From the IMG/VR virus record IMGVR_UViG_3300023179_000016, positions 1 to 64,000 of that record: a stretch of DNA of 64,000 nt; one strand, written 5' to 3'. The position numbers and the translations under genes are program-made. The notes beneath the pieces were generated by a model. That model did not search any database, was not told the origin of the DNA, and saw only the letters and a program-made list of their open reading frames with translations. The DNA is from a virus. Below are positions 13,347-64,000 of this stretch, one piece after another; the stretch's first letter is position 1, and each line of letters begins with the position of its first letter.

Positions 13347-13763
13347 TTAGAGATGGGATGGGGACTCAAGAAATTTCTTGAGTCCCTTTATTTTTTCTTC
13401 TACAAAATATTTGTCGTTGAGCTTCCTGTTTCTTCCTGATGGGTGCGGCATATGATAAAAGCTCAACTGTAGCAGTGTCAATGCCCTTGCAGCGCTATTG
13501 CCCAACGCTATTAATTTATAGTTGTTGCGCTCATCTAATGATTTTTTAAGTCTAATCGCAGACTCCCTTATGTCTTTTGCCGACAGAGGCTTATTATCTT
13601 TAGTTTTAAGATCGCTTAGATTAAGATACTCTATAGATAGTTCTACATCTAATCTTTTTATCCATGAATCTAATACCCTCCTAGATAGAGTATCGTTATC
13701 AAAAGGTCTATTAGTAGAGGAAGAATTGCTGGGATTTGAACCGATAAAGATTATTCTTGTCAT
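13347..13763 (-). CDS. Uracil-DNA glycosylase-like superfamily protein
   Basis: FIGSNPS, IALG and HPSGRN motifs. Confidence 0.7.
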   Translation of the reverse strand: MTRIIFIGSNPSNSSSTNRPFDNDTLSRRVLDSWIKRLDVELSIEYLNLSDLKTKDNKPLSAKDIRESAIRLKKSLDERNNYKLIALGNSAARALTLLQLSFYHMPHPSGRNRKLNDKYFVEEKIKGLKKFLESPSHL

Positions 13764-26498: not shown

Positions 26499-27018
26499 AT
26501 TTTGCTTTTAACTCCGCTGGCAGTTGTTCCCAGTCGTCATCGCTGACACTGCTACGTTGCGGCTCTGACTTTTCTAGACATCTGTATTTTTTCTCTTCTG
26601 GCTTGCGGGCCTCGATGACCGGTACACTGGAAATGCCCAAGCCGGTCTCCGCAAGCATGGCATCCATCTTGGCGCCGTTGATATACAGATAATCATTGGC
26701 TATGCATGCAACAGACATTGTCAACTGTATCTCTGAGCTATATGAATAATGCTTACTGCTGAAATATGTAGACCATACATCAAATTTGACACAAAGATCG
26801 GTATTCTTATATAGGATCTTTACCGTTCTATTGCATCTCATGGGAATCTTTCTCTTACCTATGACATCGTTGAATAGCGATATACCCATGTTATAGAAAT
26901 AAGTCACGATGTCATTTTCTGAGTCACCAGATATTGCTTTGATCGCATACATGAGACTGTTGCTGATCTGCAGCGATTTAAAGATGACCGGTCTATTGTT
27001 TACCTTAGCTACTTCCAT
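26482..27018 (-). CDS. Hypothetical protein with C-terminal DWEQLPAELKAKY tag
   Basis: SD AGGAG before ATG 27018. Confidence 0.6.
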   Translation of the reverse strand: MEVAKVNNRPVIFKSLQISNSLMYAIKAISGDSENDIVTYFYNMGISLFNDVIGKRKIPMRCNRTVKILYKNTDLCVKFDVWSTYFSSKHYSYSSEIQLTMSVACIANDYLYINGAKMDAMLAETGLGISSVPVIEARKPEEKKYRCLEKSEPQRSSVSDDDWEQLPAELKAKYEKTT

Positions 27019-42875: not shown

Positions 42876-42894
42876 TCATGCAACTGTAGCAGTG

Positions 42895-43323
42895 TCAGCC
42901 CGCGGGAACGTTCTTGCGGGCTGACTTTGCTAACTTATCACATGCCTCGTTATTCAAATCACCTGAGTGACTTTTGACCCATGTAGTCTGTAAATTTAAT
43001 TTAGAACTAAGCTCTTTCAATTCAAGATATAGAGTTATCAAATGTTGCGCCTTACACGAATAAGTGCCATCTGCGTAACCTAATACAAGTTTAGAATCAC
43101 TGATAAGTGAATATGTTTTCTTGTCAGAAAGATTCTTGCATATCTCTAATGCCTTTTTTAAACCTTCAATTGCGCCACGTAGTTCAGCAGAGTTATTTGT
43201 TGCATCTTTTATGTGCCCAGAATCTTCTGCAACTAATTTACCGTCTATTAATATTCTATATGCCCATCCGCCATTCTTAGTCTGCGTATTTCCAGATCCG
43301 TCAGAGTATATATCTACATCCAT
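42895..43323 (-). CDS. rnhA: Ribonuclease HI
   Basis: IYSDGS, GGW, TNN.AEL, SDS, WVKSHSG..NEACDKLA. Confidence 0.9.
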   Translation of the reverse strand: MDVDIYSDGSGNTQTKNGGWAYRILIDGKLVAEDSGHIKDATNNSAELRGAIEGLKKALEICKNLSDKKTYSLISDSKLVLGYADGTYSCKAQHLITLYLELKELSSKLNLQTTWVKSHSGDLNNEACDKLAKSARKNVPAG

Positions 43324-48940: not shown

Positions 48941-49432
48941 TTAGCTAGCGATGAATTTAGCAGCGAGTTCTGGCGGGAGAACAGAGTAATCGATTGTAGT
49001 GTTCATCTTATTTGTCTGAGAAATCTCAGCAGTCCTGTTGTCGATGTGGCCCTGAACCTCAGCGATCTCGCTGGGATCGGTGAGAGTGGAAAGAAGGGCA
49101 CGAAGCGCTTTTAGCTGAGGGTCAGAAGAACCCTTACGAGAACCAGGATTCTTTGCTGCATAAGATACGCCGCCGTTCAAGCGAGTATCTTTGCGGAGCC
49201 AATTTGACTGAAGACCGGAGACATACGCCCGCAGCTCAGAAGCGTTAAAACTCTTATCAAGAGCGATGTTTCCAGCAGAAAAACCTTCTACCAGAATTTG
49301 GTTAACCTGCAACCGCAGTTCACGAGTCATCATCGAGCTGATATTGTCGCCCTCAGATACCGTGATATTGTTCTCAGCCAGAACGTTCATAACTGCTGAA
49401 TAGACTGCTTCTTTTTGAGTTTGCTTAGACAT
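48941..49432 (-). CDS. QKEAV/NWLRKDxRLNGG paralogue family protein
   Basis: QKEAVY...YVSGLQSNWLRKDTRLNGG...DPQLKALRALL...IDYSVLPPELAAKF; SD AGGAG. Confidence 0.85.
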   Translation of the reverse strand: MSKQTQKEAVYSAVMNVLAENNITVSEGDNISSMMTRELRLQVNQILVEGFSAGNIALDKSFNASELRAYVSGLQSNWLRKDTRLNGGVSYAAKNPGSRKGSSDPQLKALRALLSTLTDPSEIAEVQGHIDNRTAEISQTNKMNTTIDYSVLPPELAAKFIAS

Positions 49433-55058: not shown

Positions 55059-55075
55059 CCGCTGCATTTGGCGGC

Positions 55076-55103
55076 GTAGCGGTGTCAGCCGCGCGGCTGA
55101 CAC
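55076..55103 (-). terminator. Example of hairpin + GACACYGCYAC element at the 3' end of a minus-strand unit
   Basis: GTAGCG GTGTCAGCCGCGCGGCTGACAC between convergent genes; nine same-orientation copies in the window. Confidence 0.5.
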
Positions 55104-57850: not shown

Positions 57851-58333
57851 TCACTCGCCAGACGTTGCCGTCGGAGCAAACTTGGCAGCGAGCTCCGGGG
57901 GCAGAGCACTGAGGTCGATCGTCGGCTGCTTGGACCGAGCGATCTCGGCGACCCGGGCATCGATGTGGGCCTGGACCTCAGCCCGGTCAGTGACGTCGGT
58001 GAGCGTTCCGAGCAGGGCTCGAAGAGCCTTGAGCTGCGGATCACCAGAACCAGAGCGAGAGCCAGGGTTCTTAGCCACATATGCGACCCCACCGTTCAGC
58101 CGCTTGTCCTTTCGGAGCCAGTTGCTCTGCAGGCCAGAGACATAGGCCTTCAGCTGCTGGTCGGTGAACTCCGTATCGAGCTCGATAGCTCCACCGCGGA
58201 ACCCCTCGAACAGGATCTGGTTCACCATGGCCCGCTCCTCACGGGACATCTCGACTGCACTCGAGAACTCGGTAGTTCCCTTGACGTTGACGACTGCACC
58301 ATAGACTGCTTCTTTCTGACTCATCTTGCTCAT
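57851..58333 (-). CDS. QKEAV/NWLRKDxRLNGG paralogue family protein
   Basis: QKEAVY...NWLRKDKRLNGG...IDLSALPPELAAKF. Confidence 0.85.
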   Translation of the reverse strand: MSKMSQKEAVYGAVVNVKGTTEFSSAVEMSREERAMVNQILFEGFRGGAIELDTEFTDQQLKAYVSGLQSNWLRKDKRLNGGVAYVAKNPGSRSGSGDPQLKALRALLGTLTDVTDRAEVQAHIDARVAEIARSKQPTIDLSALPPELAAKFAPTATSGE

Positions 58334-59322
58334 AACTAACGTTCCTCCGTTGTTGTTCTATAAGATCGGGATATCGGTCACCACGACCGGTATCTTCACC
58401 TATGGGGTGTTCGGTACTCACTCAAAACTGGCTACTTCCGCGTCTGCTGTGGCTACCTACTGCTTGCCGCCTGCCTCCACTGGGGAGAGCTCCACTCGCG
58501 CTACTCCCTGCTCTCTACATCATTACCACCTAGATATATGTTCGGGATAATGGGATGTCGTGTAAGTCGCTGATACTATTGGTGGGGAAGGTTGGTGTGG
58601 AAGGGGTGTAACGGTGCCCACCTGAGTCACACTGAGTCTGACCCGACCTGCACGTCGCACTCACCGAGACTCCCCGATACCCGTCCAGACAGCCGATCGG
58701 GCTCGTGAGGTCATAGGCTCGGCTGCACCCGACAGCCGGCGTAGCAGTGTCGGCGCGCGCTGAAAAGCAGTGGGTAGGGCAAGCAGCCGCTATTATATAG
58801 CCCGGCCAGGGCCATGTGCTGCCAGATCCCTACCCACGGACGCTTGTTGATCCCTTACTGCCTGAGTCTAGCCGTCGTCAGACAGGTCACCAACCTGTTA
58901 CGACCTCTAGATCGTTTCGGCCTTGGAAAGACTCACGTATCCGGGTACGGTTTTGAGAGCCACCCATCATACATATTCAGCAGGAGACAGAACCGTACAA
59001 GATTCTCCTACCGGTTAGACAATACATCCCGGTACTTCCGTCTAACAAGAGTACCGGATTTACCCCTCACTTTACCCGGACTAGGGACCGGTCACCGATA
59101 AGTGTCCTGGCTAGGACCACCGGTGAGTGGAAAACTGACTTACTTTCTGAGGCAGATGATCGGGAGCAGCGCGCGTGTTTCTGCGCCGAGAAGAAAAGCT
59201 ACGAGCGCATGACAGAAAAGCGTCTAATCCTACCAAGGCGGGCGCCGGGAATTGACCCGCCCACCCAGCGACCGCCCGATAAACCGCTGTTTTTTGAGCC
59301 TAGCTAACCTCCGGGGCGTGGC

Positions 59323-59592
59323 TCATTTCCCCTCCAGCGCGGCGCGGGCAATACTTGGCAATGCACAATCACAGGACTTCCCAAATTGAATGTCGCACCG
59401 TTCATGGTGAATGGTCAGATATTGCTTCAGCGCCTCCCGAAGCCTGGCGTTTTCAGCGCTGACTTCCTCGATTGCGACACGATACCCAGCCAAAAACACT
59501 TCTATGTCAATGTGCATTACAGATGCGTCTTTCTGATAGGCTGGGAATCGCTGCTTTAGATATTCTTCTGCCAGTTTTTCGGCTCTAGTCAT
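59323..59592 (-). CDS. Array unit 5 (ENARLREAL...ARAALEGK)
   Basis: Start codon supplied by the preceding repeat (GGAGGGGAAATGA). Confidence 0.7.
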   Translation of the reverse strand: MTRAEKLAEEYLKQRFPAYQKDASVMHIDIEVFLAGYRVAIEEVSAENARLREALKQYLTIHHERCDIQFGKSCDCALPSIARAALEGK

Positions 59593-59792
59593 TTCCCCTC
59601 CAGCGCGGCGCGGGCGATCGATGCGCCACAAAGACAACCAGCGGTATAGTCACAACCTTCATCATGGGCGGCAAATCTTTCCAGCGCCTCCCGAAGCCGG
59701 GCGTTCTCGGCTTCCATTTCGGCTCGTCCGGATTCGTAACCCTGTTGCCATCCTGAGCACGTTCCCTTGCATGGGTGATTCAGCTTGTTCAT
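59589..59792 (-). CDS. Array unit 4
   Basis: ENARLREAL...ARAALEGK. Confidence 0.7.
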   Translation of the reverse strand: MNKLNHPCKGTCSGWQQGYESGRAEMEAENARLREALERFAAHDEGCDYTAGCLCGASIARAALEGK

Positions 59793-60019
59793 TACTTCCC
59801 CTCCAGCGCGGCGCGGGCTTCAATTACTTCCTGTCTAAGTTCATCCCAAGCCTGACCTAGCTCTTCGTCCAGCAGAAGAGCCTCATCCACTTTATTGGTG
59901 ATCTTGCGAAGCGCCTCCCGAAGCCGGGTGTTTTCGGCTAAGAATCGATTCCTGGCCTCTTCAAATCCCCGCAACCACACCAATTCATCCGGACTTCCCG
60001 CCTCAGGTCTTGTGCTCAT
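59792..60019 (-). CDS. Array unit 3
   Basis: ENTRLREAL...ARAALEGK. Confidence 0.7.
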   Translation of the reverse strand: MSTRPEAGSPDELVWLRGFEEARNRFLAENTRLREALRKITNKVDEALLLDEELGQAWDELRQEVIEARAALEGK

Positions 60020-60233
60020 TTAGTTTCTCCATAACATTGGCAGGGAGCATCTTTTCGTCTTCTAAAAAGACGTAATCGTACCCATCCGCGTGTTTCATCA
60101 GGTCTTCTTTTAACGAGCGAATGTCGGAGCTTATCCACTGTCCTAGAACCTGACCGTCTTCAGTGACACACACACCAACCACGTCCCAACCCGGGCTGGA
60201 CCCAAAGATCGGAAATCCATAAGCCTTCTTCAT
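60003..60233 (-). CDS. Non-repeat gene embedded in the array
   Basis: MKKAYGFP start supplied by repeat A; lacks both motifs. Confidence 0.6.
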   Translation of the reverse strand: MKKAYGFPIFGSSPGWDVVGVCVTEDGQVLGQWISSDIRSLKEDLMKHADGYDYVFLEDEKMLPANVMEKLNEHKT

Positions 60234-60565
60234 GCTTCCCTCCCCTCCAGCGCGGCACGGGCTGCACACTGCAGGCACCCCTGGTCGGAATAGCTGCACC
60301 GCTCATCGTGCCCACGGACCATTTCTTTCAGCGCCTCTCGCAGTCGTGCATTCTCAGACCGAAGCATAATTACCTCGTTAAGCCACTGCGGTGGCTCAAT
60401 AATGAGGTAAGACATACCCGCCCTTGTCCCCGGTGGATCGGACAAATGAATTTGTAAAGGCTCTGATGAGGCCAGTACGCAAGCATGGTCCTGAAGCGTG
60501 TTCAGTGAAACTTCTGCACCGCAGCGGGAGCATTTCCCAATTTTGTCGTTTGTAAAAAGGCTCAT
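60230..60565 (-). CDS. Array unit 2
   Basis: MSLFTN...ENARLREAL...ARAALEGREA. Confidence 0.7.
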   Translation of the reverse strand: MSLFTNDKIGKCSRCGAEVSLNTLQDHACVLASSEPLQIHLSDPPGTRAGMSYLIIEPPQWLNEVIMLRSENARLREALKEMVRGHDERCSYSDQGCLQCAARAALEGREA

Positions 60566-60804
60566 TTCCCCTCCAGCGCGGCGCGGGCGATATTTCCGAG
60601 CGTGCAATCGCAGAATCGAGCAGCGTCCAGCGGTGGGTTATCCCGCGAGGCGCAATCGTGGAAATGCGTGTAAGCGTACTCCTCCAGCGCCTCCCGAAGC
60701 CGGGCATTTTCAGCTTCAAGCTCTTTCATTTTTGTAGTGACTTCTTGGTTATACCGATCGGCAGAATCCAGCATGTCCTTTGTGAGATCCAATTCATCCT
60801 TCAC
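60562..60804 (-). CDS. Array unit 1
   Basis: SD AAGGAG then GTG; ENARLREAL...ARAALEGK. Confidence 0.7.
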   Translation of the reverse strand: MKDELDLTKDMLDSADRYNQEVTTKMKELEAENARLREALEEYAYTHFHDCASRDNPPLDAARFCDCTLGNIARAALEGK

Positions 60805-60993: not shown

Positions 60994-61206
60994 TCAACCC
61001 TTGTCTTTGCCGAGGCTGATGGGCAGCAGAGCCATCATCTCGGCGATGACCTGCTCGTCGGTCATCGGAGTGAGCTCGGGATTGGGCGTGAGCTCGGCTG
61101 GCACGTTCGGCCAGGGATACGAGGTCATCTTGAAGGGCTTGCCGGCCGCGACGCCGTACACGGTCTGTGTCTCTGTCTCAGAGTTGTAGCACGAGAGGTA
61201 TCTCAT
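60994..61206 (-). CDS. Hypothetical early-region protein
   Basis: SD AGGAG; GC3-rich codons. Confidence 0.6.
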   Translation of the reverse strand: MRYLSCYNSETETQTVYGVAAGKPFKMTSYPWPNVPAELTPNPELTPMTDEQVIAEMMALLPISLGKDKG

Positions 61207-61242
61207 ATCTTTCTCCTGTTGAGATTTAGGATCGGGATGGGT

Positions 61243-61404
61243 TCAGAGGTCCTCGACCAGATACTCGCCCTCGATCTCCAGCTCGACTGCGTAGCCCTGC
61301 TCGAGGTACTTATCTCCCACCTCGAGTGCCTGGTCGTAGGAGTCAAACCTGATGCTGGCGAACCTGGAGCACTGACCGATCTCGCGGACGTGGATGGTGT
61401 ACAT
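61243..61404 (-). CDS. 53-aa protein, not in the ORF track
   Basis: MYTIHVREIGQCSRFASIRFDSYDQALEVGDKYLEQGYAVELEIEGEYLVEDL*; SD GGAGG; promoter motif at 61425-61438. Confidence 0.65.
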   Translation of the reverse strand: MYTIHVREIGQCSRFASIRFDSYDQALEVGDKYLEQGYAVELEIEGEYLVEDL

Positions 61405-61528
61405 TCATATCCTCCATACATGGAATTATATGATCGGGATCGGGTGGGATTCGGTTATATAGTCGGCGTGGCGGTGTCGGTCGGCGAGCAGCCGGGCGGA
61501 GCTTCCTTGCTCCGCCTGCTCACTCAGG

Positions 61529-61879
61529 TTACTTGGAGTAGGCGACCACACCGTACAGTAGTCCGTTACCGGAACCATCGACTGGTTCGTCGACCATCTT
61601 GTATCCGAAAAGCTCCATGTTGTAGTTGAGTGCGTCGAGCATGTGGTCGATCCACTCGTTGAGTTCATGAGCATCGTCGGGTTTCAAGCCGTCGTCTGCG
61701 TAGTCATAGTGGACGACTATATCGCCCAACTTTATTGAAGGAAGAACTCCGTAGTTAGAGATGTTGGTCGGATCGATCGCTTCGACATACATGCTGCCAG
61801 GCATGTCACACTTGGCCTGGTGCGGAGCAGTTGACTCGAGATTGCTCACCAGTTTCACTACGGTGTTCATGTTAGCCAT
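61529..61879 (-). CDS. Acidic hypothetical cassette gene
   Basis: Leader duplicated with that of 62668-62925. Confidence 0.7.
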   Translation of the reverse strand: MANMNTVVKLVSNLESTAPHQAKCDMPGSMYVEAIDPTNISNYGVLPSIKLGDIVVHYDYADDGLKPDDAHELNEWIDHMLDALNYNMELFGYKMVDEPVDGSGNGLLYGVVAYSK

Positions 61880-61945
61880 CAGGCAGACCTCTGGGTTATG
61901 AGTTAATTATTTAACCCATCGACAATTATATATAATGTCGGTAAT
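61876..61945 (-). promoter_or_regulatory. Promoter + hairpin leader + SD, duplicated at 62922-62995
   Basis: ATTACCGACATTATATATAA...GATG(A/G)GTTAAATAATTAACTCATAACC..GAGGTCTGCCTGATG in both copies. Confidence 0.8.
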
Positions 61946-62020
61946 GAGTTTACGGGTGGCGTAGCAGTGTCAGCGAGCAGCTGGGCGGAGCTTCCTTGCT
62001 CCGCCCAACCGCAGGTCAGC

Positions 62021-62488
62021 TCAGGCCTTGAACTTCGCGGCCAGCTCTGCAGGCAGCTGGCTGAAGTCGATGGCGGGCTTCGCGGGCTTGGCGATCTCGG
62101 CACTCCTGAGGTCGATGAAGTGCTGGATCTCAGCCCTGTCGGCCGGGTCAGTCACCGTGCTGAGCAGGGCCTTGAGAGCCTTGATCTGCGGGTCGCCAGA
62201 GCCAGAGCGAGCACCAGGGTTCTTGGTGACCCAGGTAGTCCCGCCGTTGAGTCGCTGGTCCTTGCGGAGCCAGTTGTTCACGAGGCCGACCACGTACTTC
62301 TTGAGCTCCGGCTCAGAGAAGTTGGCCTTGAGGGTGATCTTACCCTCCTTGAACATGGTGACCAGCTCCGAGTGGATCTGGGCCAGCTCAGACTTGCTGG
62401 GCGTGTGAGCTCCGTTAGGAGCGAACTGAGTGCAGAAGCAGCTGACGACATTGAAGACCGCTTCCTTCTGGTTCATTGCTGCGATCAT
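62021..62488 (-). CDS. QKEAV/NWLRKDxRLNGG paralogue family protein
   Basis: SD GGAGG before ATG 62488; NWLRKDQRLNGG...IDFSQLPAELAAKF. Confidence 0.85.
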   Translation of the reverse strand: MIAAMNQKEAVFNVVSCFCTQFAPNGAHTPSKSELAQIHSELVTMFKEGKITLKANFSEPELKKYVVGLVNNWLRKDQRLNGGTTWVTKNPGARSGSGDPQIKALKALLSTVTDPADRAEIQHFIDLRSAEIAKPAKPAIDFSQLPAELAAKFKA

Positions 62489-62667
62489 GCGGGTTTCCTC
62501 CGTTGGTTGGTTGTAGGTTCGGGCGCGAGCTGTAAACTCGAGCATCATGCGCTCGACATTTACAATTAGATATAAGATCGGGGGAAGTCGGTATGCGGCC
62601 GGCGTAGCAGTGTCACGGCGCGCGGACCAAAGGGTGGGGTCGTCCATGACCCCACCGTATCAGCGAC

Positions 62668-62925
62668 TCAACCGGTCAGCAGGTCGTTCCAGTCGACTGG
62701 TACGTAGCACTCGCCGGTCTCGCGGGCGAACTCGGATGGAGTGGGTTCGCGGCCGACTCGCACGTGCTGGTCGAGCTCCTCGATGTAGACGACCGACGGT
62801 TCGGAGTCAGTGACCTCATAGAAGTACTGATCAGCGTCCGCATCCAGCATCTCCCGCTGGATTCCCTCGTGGGTGACGAGGACGGTATAGTCGGTGCACG
62901 GCACAATAGAGATGAGTTTCACCAT
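62668..62925 (-). CDS. Acidic hypothetical cassette gene
   Basis: SD GGAGG; shared leader. Confidence 0.7.
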   Translation of the reverse strand: MVKLISIVPCTDYTVLVTHEGIQREMLDADADQYFYEVTDSEPSVVYIEELDQHVRVGREPTPSEFARETGECYVPVDWNDLLTG

Positions 62926-63084
62926 CAGGCAGACCTCCAGGTTATGAGTTAATTATTTAACTCATCATTCACTTTTATATATAATGTCGGTAATAGGACA
63001 CCAGGCGTAGCAGTGTCGGTGGCTCGAGCTACCGAGCCCGCTGCGGGGCGGAGCTTCCGTGCTCCGCCCCGACCCGCTCTTCGC

Positions 63085-63522
63085 TCAGCGCTTGCCGAAC
63101 TTGGCTGCGATCTCTGCAGGCAGCTTGCTGAAGTCGACCTTGGGTCGGTTCAGCTCGGCGATCCGAGAGTCGATGTGTCGCTGGATCTCAGCTCGATCCG
63201 TCGGGTCGGTGATGGTGCTGAGCAGAGCCCTGAGCGCAGTCAGCTGGGGATCATCGACTCGGGAGGACTTGGGTTGGTGATCGACCCCACCGTTCAGCCG
63301 CTTGTCCTTTCGGAGCCAGTTGTTGAGCAACCCTGAGACATAGTTGCTCAGCTCCTTGTCGGTGTACTCCTTCCTGAGCTCGATGCTCCCGTTCCTGAAC
63401 CCCTCGAACAAGACCTGACGGATGGTTCGGGTCTGCTCAGAAGTCGGCTCGCAGACGCCGACTCCATCGAACCCGGTGATCGCGACCACTGCCTGGTAGA
63501 CTGCTTCCTTCTGGTTCATCAT
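63085..63522 (-). CDS. QKEAV/NWLRKDxRLNGG paralogue family protein
   Basis: SD GAGGAG before ATG 63522; NWLRKDKRLNGG...VDFSKLPAEIAAKF. Confidence 0.85.
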   Translation of the reverse strand: MMNQKEAVYQAVVAITGFDGVGVCEPTSEQTRTIRQVLFEGFRNGSIELRKEYTDKELSNYVSGLLNNWLRKDKRLNGGVDHQPKSSRVDDPQLTALRALLSTITDPTDRAEIQRHIDSRIAELNRPKVDFSKLPAEIAAKFGKR

Positions 63523-64000
63523 GCGATGCTCCTCATGATCCATTGTAGGATCAGTTGACACATCCATGCGTCGGGTTGATTGATATGTAATGTCAGTACA
63601 ACATCACACATCAACATGTAAGATCAGTATTTAATTAAATACCAATCATTTACATATAGATATAAGATCGGAAATCGTCGGGAAGAGATCATCCGAAAAT
63701 AGGGCCCGCCGACCTCGACTTACAAGGGATCCCTAGAGTCGGGACCGGTACACGCTGCGCGAACGCTCTCTACATGCAACTTTTTATAAAATAGGGCCCG
63801 CCACCCTTGCTCCCTAATAGGTACAATTTAACCGGTACCTCTTTTGCCTATTATATAAAAATAAACTCATGAAGACCTATCATTTTAAGAAAGACAACGA
63901 GATACACTCTAGCATACCGAGAATAAAATTAACCGCTCTGCTTCTTCTCCTGAAGATAACGACGATCAAGGACCTAAACCTAGAACACATATGACACGCG

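Follow-up and report, generated by a model that had tools for sequence, protein, structure and literature searches.

The first 64 kb of the uncultured virus record IMGVR_UViG_3300023179_000016 (hereafter the window, i.e. the whole 64,000-nt stretch that was analysed) contain an array of small gene cassettes separated by a repeated, oriented junction element. The record itself spans 153,399 bp and is estimated to be ~91% complete. Between 61.4 and 63.7 kb of the window, on the minus strand, four consecutive units repeat one order of parts: a CCGA-N3-TATA motif, a leader with a hairpin and a Shine–Dalgarno (SD) sequence, an open reading frame (ORF), a GC hairpin bearing an A-N-GGA-N loop, and then GACACYGCYACGCC, which belongs to a near-invariant, non-palindromic element of 16–17 nt referred to here as the box. 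This sequence occurs six times in the window, in every case on the minus strand, versus 0.03 occurrences expected; the finding is confirmed as real and lies well beyond chance. The best explanation for the whole is probably that these units form part of a cassette-built segment, similar to the promoter-early stem-loop (PeSL) modules of T4-type phages, that carries its own signals and is shuffled at its repeated junctions.

All four units had been proposed in an original prediction made from the letters of the window, and each was recovered together with every element listed for it (Table 1). The CCGA-N3-TATA motifs start at 63671, 62990, 62581 and 61941, with a fifth at 61437; the units that follow the first four are named A–D after their ORFs, and ORFs E and F share the next. 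None of the ORFs A–F has a match in Pfam or PHROG. A and C are paralogues, belonging to a family that we call NQKEAV, and B, D, E and F encode small, acidic proteins (pI 4.1–4.6). As predicted, one promoter-leader serves two unrelated genes: the products of B and D show no relationship (BLASTP E 0.85), and their upstream sequences match in 65 of 76 aligned columns (86%) up to the start codon, the identity ending at ATGG. The array is also visibly GC-richer than its surroundings, with 52–58% GC in the island at 55–65 kb that holds the cassettes, compared with ~38% for the record. Two of the predicted details survive in part. A second small hairpin is predicted as a separate structure in A and B, whereas in C and D the fold extends the main stem instead; and the alternation of paralogous with acidic genes holds for the two repeats in the window but is no rule in the relatives. 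The kinship of A with C, the likeness of the A and C promoters to each other and of the B and D promoters to each other, and the core common to three of the hairpins might suggest that the repeats merely remain from a tandem duplication of a local two-gene segment (A-B giving C-D) and reflect no wider system. However, B and D are unrelated, and the same grammar accompanies other genes in dozens of phages; this explanation is contradicted by the comparative data, and we find it hardly credible.

The box is conserved across the clade. In 92 distinct contexts, the conserved block reads R-C-T-GACAC-Y-GCTACGCC, with sharp edges at positions −3 and +13 and uninformative flanks. Positions 0–13 were fixed by the search pattern, and so their conservation was judged from a near-match scan, in which few positions were substituted and 49 matches lay on the same strand versus one antisense. 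An exact-match scan of IMG/VR returned more than 118 stretches, among them dozens of contigs with two to seven copies on one strand, although, by a rough estimate, most of the single hits to the 14-mer could be due to chance. In the multi-copy contigs, the box always comes after a hairpin and is usually followed by a promoter-like motif of the form CCGA/CTGA/CAGA-N3-(T/G)ATA. Five near-complete relatives (147–177 kb) carry three to eight boxes each, on one strand only and mostly within 10–20 kb. For a sample that did not depend on the motif, loci were drawn by the virion protein encoded next to the array (48–86% identity): all 26 of those with at least 7 kb of upstream sequence have boxes, and every one of these 97 boxes lies on the divergent gene strand. 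The clade thus conserves the array as a syntenic feature. Both in the window and in the mapped arrays of relatives, the boxes sit between ORFs, strictly co-oriented with the genes. Further 11- to 12-nt matches to the core GACACYGCTAC are found at 42883–42896 and 13466–13479 on the minus strand (each GACACTGCTACAGT), and at 26545, 91273 and 116379 on the plus strand (the last two being outside the window); together, these extra matches exceed chance. Of these, the match at 42896 comes after a hairpin where two genes converge, and it overlaps a stop codon; the one at 13479 is internal to an ORF, and the three plus-strand matches are within coding sequence or next to it.

Between these constant junctions, the content of the arrays varies, and the comparison with relatives thus bears out the modularity that had been proposed. 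A total of 103 distinct inter-box units were delineated, with a median length of 751 nt, 33 of which hold exactly one ORF; their ORFs fall into 293 families, 255 of them singletons. The arrays differ among phages in both content and order. In one relative (L054), seven boxes occur in a row, mostly with one gene per unit, and the genes are almost wholly unlike those of the window. Units bounded by boxes house the family of gene D (F4) in three further phages, as the sole ORF in one of them and beside a second ORF in the remaining two; across all four phages, its neighbours are different each time. That the cassettes can be shuffled by recombination, as was also predicted, is illustrated by the relative L056, which is colinear with L103 (83% identity) and L073 (87% identity) save for ~1.3 kb, corresponding to two cassettes, that is present in L056 only. 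The breaks fall on boxes, and the junction of ~70 nt aligns to both ends; from these alignments, we take the indel to be the footprint of recombination between repeated junctions. The central idea of insulated, shufflable expression cassettes holds; the ‘early’ and ‘host-takeover’ roles that accompanied it, deduced from position and gene size, are putative.

An indel that ends on boxes, with the junction duplicated at both ends, would equally be produced if the box were a portable recombination adapter, akin to an att site or linker and devoid of any regulatory role, that persists because cassettes with intact copies are exchanged between co-infecting phages. The presence of the same cassette family between boxes in different phages would suit this idea, as would the even, contiguous and sharp-edged conservation, which fits DNA–DNA homology, and the high G + C content at third codon positions (GC3) of cassettes in AT-rich genomes, as expected of a shared mobile pool. 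On the other hand, 17 bp is short for RecA-type exchange, and no integrase or other site-specific recombinase was found in the record; moreover, selection for exchangeability would be weak relative to a near-invariance that is maintained down to 48% virion-protein identity, and both the strict post-hairpin position and the apparent phasing to the promoter (see below) would go unexplained. We consider an adapter of this kind to be quite improbable.

The CCGA-N3-TATA motif had been proposed as a phage-specific promoter, and it is indeed both clade-wide and strand-specific. In the 153-kb record there are 19 copies, all on the minus strand and mostly 20–30 nt before an SD sequence and ATG; it is, therefore, a promoter-like motif of the non-structural block throughout the phage, and not of the island only. 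The logo of 70 aligned promoters reads CCGAnnCTATATA, followed 6–8 nt later by TRTnA, with no information at −35. Judged by its letters, the motif CCGAnnCTATAWA looks like an extended −10 promoter that lacks a −35 element; a scan with the sigma-70 consensus did not call the CCGA-N3-TATA sites. Of the 139 junctions of relatives, 82 have a promoter-like motif in the 90 nt that follow the box, as against 12 with one upstream. As to what might read it, a 641-aa ORF outside the window (147656–149581, plus strand) has a sigma-70 region 2 match (residues 508–544) as its sole Pfam match, and a separate 138-aa frame near 138.7 kb gives a sub-threshold match to sigma-70 region 4; these may be phage sigma-like factors, possibly reading one promoter class. 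Leader hairpins are predicted by folding for all of A–D. After the promoter, the leaders contain AT-rich palindromes (GAGTTAAATAATTAACTC in the window, at 62926–62975 and 61880–61925, and runs of TAATTAATTAA in the relatives L054 and L019), which could be hairpins in the 5′ RNA or operator-like sites. The hexamer AATTAA is present in 23 of the 139 regions downstream of the box, versus one upstream.

It could be argued that the box is itself a promoter, recognized by a phage-specific RNA polymerase or sigma factor and placed in tandem with the CCGA-TATA promoter. A conserved and contiguous 16–17 nt resembles the promoters of single-subunit RNA polymerases, the heptamer TGACACT being common to the box and the SP6 promoter; the phage encodes the 641-aa protein with its sigma-70 region 2 match; and the extended box opens with CYGAcaCT, eight letters that agree with CYGAnnCT, the upstream half of the consensus promoter, an agreement that we treat as a lead and not a result. 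However, no match to a T7-like RNA polymerase (PF00940) was obtained, in a search that had no positive control, nor is there a DxDGD motif. The large ORFs named by Pfam or PHROG are structural or replicative (baseplate, sheath, polymerase), several others being without a match. The box lacks an AT-rich segment for melting, alignments with the sigma-54 and −35/−10 consensus fail on spacing, and no gene follows the box that sits at a convergent junction (55086). A promoter function for the box thus appears very improbable. Two specific assignments were also rejected. As a −35 element, the box would, at the observed spacings, be separated from the TATA by spacers of 22–44 nt, which is far too long; read as a sigma-54 promoter, it offers TGACAC in place of the similar TGGCAC, with GA where GG is invariant, and its −12 GC is displaced by one position.

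Upstream of the box, the junctions are strongly structured: in the relatives, the preceding 77 nt fold with a mean energy of −25 kcal/mol, versus −13 kcal/mol downstream, and in most junctions the last helix ends within ~6 nt of the start of the box (the folded stretch was stopped at +6). Three of the window hairpins share the core GGCGGAGC-ANGGAA-GCTCCGCC. Units A, C and D have the hairpin core GGAGC-ANGGAW-GCTCC, which is also found in relatives: the copy in L054 is identical in every letter, and others (L019/L143) differ by one change in the loop. The stem is, therefore, partly conserved along with the loop. Beyond the four hairpins of the array, the whole record has no further stem of at least 8 bp with an A-N-GGA-N hexaloop. 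A GGA-type loop is found in only 16 of 133 junctions in the relatives (closed by a C-G pair in 14 of the 16), other junctions having other loops, for example, UUCG- or GAAA-type tetraloops; we regard it as one form that the end hairpin can take, which the grammar does not require. Sites for CsrA/RsmA present GGA in a hairpin loop, with the consensus CANGGANG, and likewise all four window hairpins display C-A-N-GGA-N-G with the C and G paired. Unlike such sites, they are situated in 3′ untranslated regions, one in each, and none overlies an SD sequence or belongs to a decoy small RNA (sRNA). No CsrA gene is present in the phage record. The CsrA-type reading of the original prediction was taken from the loop sequence and is putative.

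A position directly 3′ of a hairpin raises the question of whether the box acts in RNA, as a single-stranded tail through which the upstream mRNA would acquire its 3′ end, be processed or protected, or be terminated with the aid of a factor, i.e. as the non-canonical ‘end signal’ of the original prediction. The abutment of box and hairpin in most junctions, the strict co-orientation with transcription and the box at 55086, which stands at the end of a unit without a promoter downstream, would all be in keeping with this; an extra signal would be useful for window hairpins that lack U-tracts, and near-invariance over ~14 contiguous positions suits pairing between nucleic acids. Against it, 13 of the 92 junctions, and only these, have a canonical hairpin and T-run directly before the box, such that the terminated RNAs would exclude it, and the apparent phasing of the box to the next promoter is not predicted by an RNA 3′ signal. 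Additionally, there is no complementary copy in the genomes of the five relatives, where 26 of 26 core matches are on the same strand; pairing of the box interior with upstream sequence is neither systematic nor enriched, and no Rfam family is matched. We regard a function of this type as unlikely. A resemblance to the ops element recognized with RfaH was also discarded: the reverse complement of the box, GGCGTAGCAGTG, resembles ops (GGCGGTAGCGTG), but it would reside on the template strand of the genes, and we treat the likeness as a coincidence.

The distances from the box to the CCGA/promoter motif are not evenly distributed: they cluster at 4–8, 11–17 and 23–28 nt, with gaps between, and their periodicity peaks at a period of 10–10.5 (R 0.50, n = 61, p < 0.0005; for the pooled set, n = 72, R 0.43, p < 0.0002). 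Because the spacing appears to be phased by ~10 bp, and because the box lies after canonical T-run terminators where these are present, we lean, tentatively, towards the box being a site in double-stranded DNA, at which a clade-specific factor would link the end of one unit to the promoter of the next; the support for a DNA-level role is modest. The only nameable candidate for the reader of such a site is the NQKEAV protein, which is always adjacent and highly conserved. The family comprises A, C and two further paralogues in the window, together with at least 525 metagenomic homologues, and an alignment of 42 members has a mean column identity of 59%. Among 32 IMG/VR loci centred on an NQKEAV homologue, 29 carry same-strand boxes, usually 50–150 nt after the gene. 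The protein has no match in Pfam or PHROG, nor to any protein among GenBank phages, and the ESM Atlas gave viral hypothetical clusters only; its AlphaFold model (predicted local distance difference test score, pLDDT, of 87) is all-helical. More ambitiously, the box might be read across the clade by one factor, be it NQKEAV or a pairing nucleic acid, and act both as a protein- or RNA-programmed insulator that closes a cassette and sets the next promoter, and as a universal adapter for the trade of cassettes among many phages; this combination is doubtful.

Taking these considerations together, the following mechanism is proposed. The stretch would belong to a hyperplastic, cassette-built segment, the position of which is constant among the genomes (~150–177 kb) of a clade of uncultured myoviruses, namely, at the head of the non-structural gene block and divergent from the virion genes. 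Each cassette would consist, in order, of a CCGAnnCTATAWA extended −10 promoter with no −35 element, a hairpin leader with a strong SD sequence, one or a few small ORFs, one or two GC hairpins and the box, RCTGACACYGCTACGCC. The junction of hairpin, box and promoter would end, or damp, transcription of the upstream cassette and restart it for the next, presumably early in infection. Because it is repeated, the same junction would supply homology, through which the recombination machinery of the phage, for which the record encodes RecA-like, SbcC-like and Metallophos (SbcD-like) proteins, may delete, insert and swap cassettes.

Several observations weigh against this proposal, or against the box as a DNA site within it. 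The activities of the promoters and terminators are predictions from sequence only, and all four window hairpins lack a T-run and so do not have the hairpin and U-tract of an intrinsic terminator. The 20 junctions added to the spacing analysis gave 11 promoter distances, with no significant periodicity on their own, and the junctions in the spacing test are not phylogenetically independent. In the relatives, 57 of the 139 junctions have no nearby promoter, and neither does box 55086 at the convergent junction; the box, therefore, follows hairpins more faithfully than it precedes promoters. Approximately 14 contiguous, near-invariant positions would be unusual for a protein site, and recognition by base pairing would also fit. 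With respect to the candidate reader, comparison of the NQKEAV fold by Foldseek (E > 1) and VIA (Z ≤ 5.6) gave no significant match to a solved structure and none to a known DNA-binding fold, an uninformative outcome that is compatible with DNA binding; and NQKEAV and the box are never apart in the sampled loci with enough sequence, as would be expected from a functional link and from common descent alike.

Table 1. Features of the cassette array and related elements in the window, in descending order of position; for minus-strand features the higher coordinate is the start
Feature	Coordinates	Strand	Remarks
Promoter motif CCGATCTTATA, unit A	63661..63671	−	
ORF A	63085..63522	−	basic, 145 aa, NQKEAV family, pI 9.1; alternative upstream ATG at 63567
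GC hairpin after A	63044..63071	−	11-bp stem, loop ACGGAA, no T-run
Box GACACTGCTACGCC, junction A/B	63004..63017	−	
Promoter motif CCGACATTATA and leader, unit B	62926..62990	−	leader with AT-rich hairpin and SD
ORF B	62668..62925	−	85 aa, pI 4.1, no family match
GC hairpin after B	62633..62656	−	9-bp stem, loop ATGGAC
Box GACACTGCTACGCC, junction B/C	62601..62614	−	
Promoter motif CCGATCTTATA, unit C	62571..62581	−	same type as unit A
ORF C	62021..62488	−	155 aa, NQKEAV paralogue, pI 9.3, 51% identity to A
GC hairpin after C	61977..62012	−	15-bp stem, loop AAGGAA
Box GACACTGCTACGCC, junction C/D	61958..61971	−	
Promoter motif CCGACATTATA and leader, unit D	61880..61941	−	
ORF D	61529..61879	−	116 aa, pI 4.3, family F4
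GC hairpin after D	61495..61516	−	8-bp stem, loop AAGGAA
Box variant GACACCGCCACGCC, junction D/E	61465..61478	−	
Unit holding E, F and the mini-gene operon	starts 61464	−	2.7 kb, closed by box at 58751
Promoter motif CCGATCATATA, unit of ORFs E/F	61427..61437	−	
ORF E	61243..61404	−	acidic; in the unit after junction D/E
ORF F	60994..61206	−	acidic; same unit as ORF E, before the ENARLREAL mini-gene operon
Box closing the 2.7-kb unit	58738..58751	−	
Third NQKEAV paralogue	57852..58330	−	promoter motif CCGATCTTATA at 58369
Box at convergent gene junction	55073..55086	−	right after a hairpin with GACAC in its 3′ arm; no promoter downstream
Fourth NQKEAV paralogue	48941..49432	−	outside the GC-rich island, GC3 0.47

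The unit that opens with E and F also contains five translationally coupled mini-genes (59323–60804, minus strand), the products of which contain ENARLREAL and end in ARAALEGK; ahead of them lies a sigma-70-like promoter match that includes an extended TG (60967–60939). Further along the same unit, ~770 nt (58550–59322, including the box at 58751) are poor in ORFs and rich in GC, and may constitute a structured RNA. No Rfam family reached its gathering score anywhere in the window, and at a loose threshold the only match was a weak one to Cupriavidus-1 sRNA (E 0.28, 59029–59106). Just upstream of unit A, at 63690–63830 on the minus strand, are two canonical terminators (hairpin and T-run) that share GGCGGGCCCTATTTT and are not accompanied by a box; at this point the AT-rich micro-ORF region gives way to the GC-rich array.

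Contrary to the original prediction, which did not recognize a described system here, the concept is already described as the PeSL cassettes of T4-type phages, in which modules of a stem-loop and an early promoter flank ORFans and mediate their shuffling (PMC2839356, PMC4122927). In function, this is the closest known system. Like PeSL elements, the junctions described here are composites of a stem-loop and a promoter between genes (predicted in the four junctions of the window and in 82 of 139 in the relatives); they occur in hyperplastic regions, where they flank small ORFans (255 of 293 families being singletons); and they are repeated modules at which recombination inserts, deletes or replaces genes that keep their own signals (as in the 1.3-kb indel of L056). 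In contrast, PeSL promoters are identical to that of the sigma-70 consensus and comprise −35 and −10 elements as well as an AT-rich UP element, whereas CCGAnnCTATAWA is accompanied by neither a −35 nor an AT-rich UP element; the window hairpins are U-less, and the box has no PeSL counterpart. The lineage is not T4-like either, having a polymerase of the Pol III-alpha type and a terminase that is nearest to that of Myxococcus phage Mx1 (27% identity).

Other families of oriented phage repeats provide partial parallels. Stoperators, the sites of the L5 repressor in Cluster A mycobacteriophages, are bound by a monomeric phage protein that stops elongation (PMC9283540, PMC6550527). They too are asymmetric intergenic sites of 13–17 bp oriented with transcription (6:0 for the box in the window, and 97:0 in relatives). 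However, there are more than 20 stoperators per genome, distributed genome-wide in temperate phages and varying with the immunity group, whereas the box is present in three to eight copies, mostly within one segment of 10–20 kb, and with nearly the same sequence clade-wide. Moreover, stoperators are bound by the immunity repressor, via a helix-turn-helix (HTH) and a stoperator domain, and no repressor or HTH protein was identified here. The start-associated sequences (SAS) and extended SAS (ESAS) of Cluster K mycobacteriophages lie 3–7 bp before start codons and include the SD sequence (PMC3203893). They are likewise clade-specific, non-palindromic repeats of ~13 bp in one orientation, located in the non-structural half of the genome and associated with genes of different families; SAS stand before start codons, whereas the box stands after hairpins and before a promoter. 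SAS may be regarded as a precedent for clade-specific, oriented repeats of unknown function.

The arrangement also recalls an integron array, insofar as single small genes are split by a repeated, structured element, with variable content and a constant junction. Integron cassettes are promoterless, and are separated by attC, an imperfect inverted repeat with paired core sites that is the substrate of a tyrosine-recombinase integrase; here, each cassette brings a promoter with it, and the box is linear, in contrast to a paired attC core. No integrase (PF00589) was detected in the 153-kb record, which is 91% complete, and the control genomes all gave matches. An integron array is excluded, because there is no integrase, the cassettes have promoters of their own and the box is not in a paired core. 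The box sequence was found in no paper, and the motifs described here are not in the PeSL literature. What is new is a near-invariant 16–17-nt junction box together with an unusual promoter, both previously undescribed, in an uncultured clade.

The minus-strand block (~14–67 kb) encodes a class II ribonucleotide reductase, a protein of the IMPDH/GMP-reductase family, AAA ATPases and four tRNAs, and from ~67 kb onwards the plus strand carries the structural genes (virion protein, tail sheath and a baseplate J domain); elsewhere in the record are a fusion of Pol III alpha with an exonuclease and a Cpn60-type chaperonin. The nearest cultured phage by terminase, at 27% identity, is Myxococcus phage Mx1, in whose genome the box count is no higher than the control level, and no nucleotide match to the region was found among GenBank phages. 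Two relatives come from metagenome-assembled genomes (MAGs): one that is near-complete (L166/L168; LNEN01000305.1, 146,658 bp) is filed among the contigs of a ‘Cytophagales bacterium’ MAG, and a fragment of another (L167) is in a ‘Candidatus Saccharibacteria’ MAG. Bacteroidota seldom use SD sequences. Because the phage genes have strong SD sequences, neither label is trusted as an indication of the host, and these are probably phage contigs that were binned with bacteria.

The island genes have GC3 values of 0.66–0.85 (comparing 61000–63600 of the window with the rest, in a genome of ~38% GC), and in many relatives, too, the NQKEAV genes are GC3-rich relative to their flanks. The four tRNAs of the phage serve AT-rich codons (Leu-TAA, Ile-TAT, Arg-TCT and Asn-GTT). 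Such cassettes would fit a pool common to phages of differing composition; alternatively, they would fit early genes whose composition suits a host richer in GC, in the period before the phage tRNAs come into play.

The turnover of small ORFans, by which large lytic phages adapt to their hosts, is known mainly from the PeSL work on T4-type phages. The same logic now appears in an unrelated and wholly uncultured clade, in which the box is kept almost letter for letter across phages with virion proteins that are only ~50% identical. This clade includes over 500 marker-protein homologues, and its contigs, up to 177 kb long, number in the dozens. The boundaries of the cassettes are easily called computationally, and the arrays thus offer a natural experiment on modular shuffling. 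The cassettes would also be compact, self-contained expression units, with promoter, leader and terminator, that could be tested as parts. Overall, the finding points to an unknown reader of a 16–17-nt signal.

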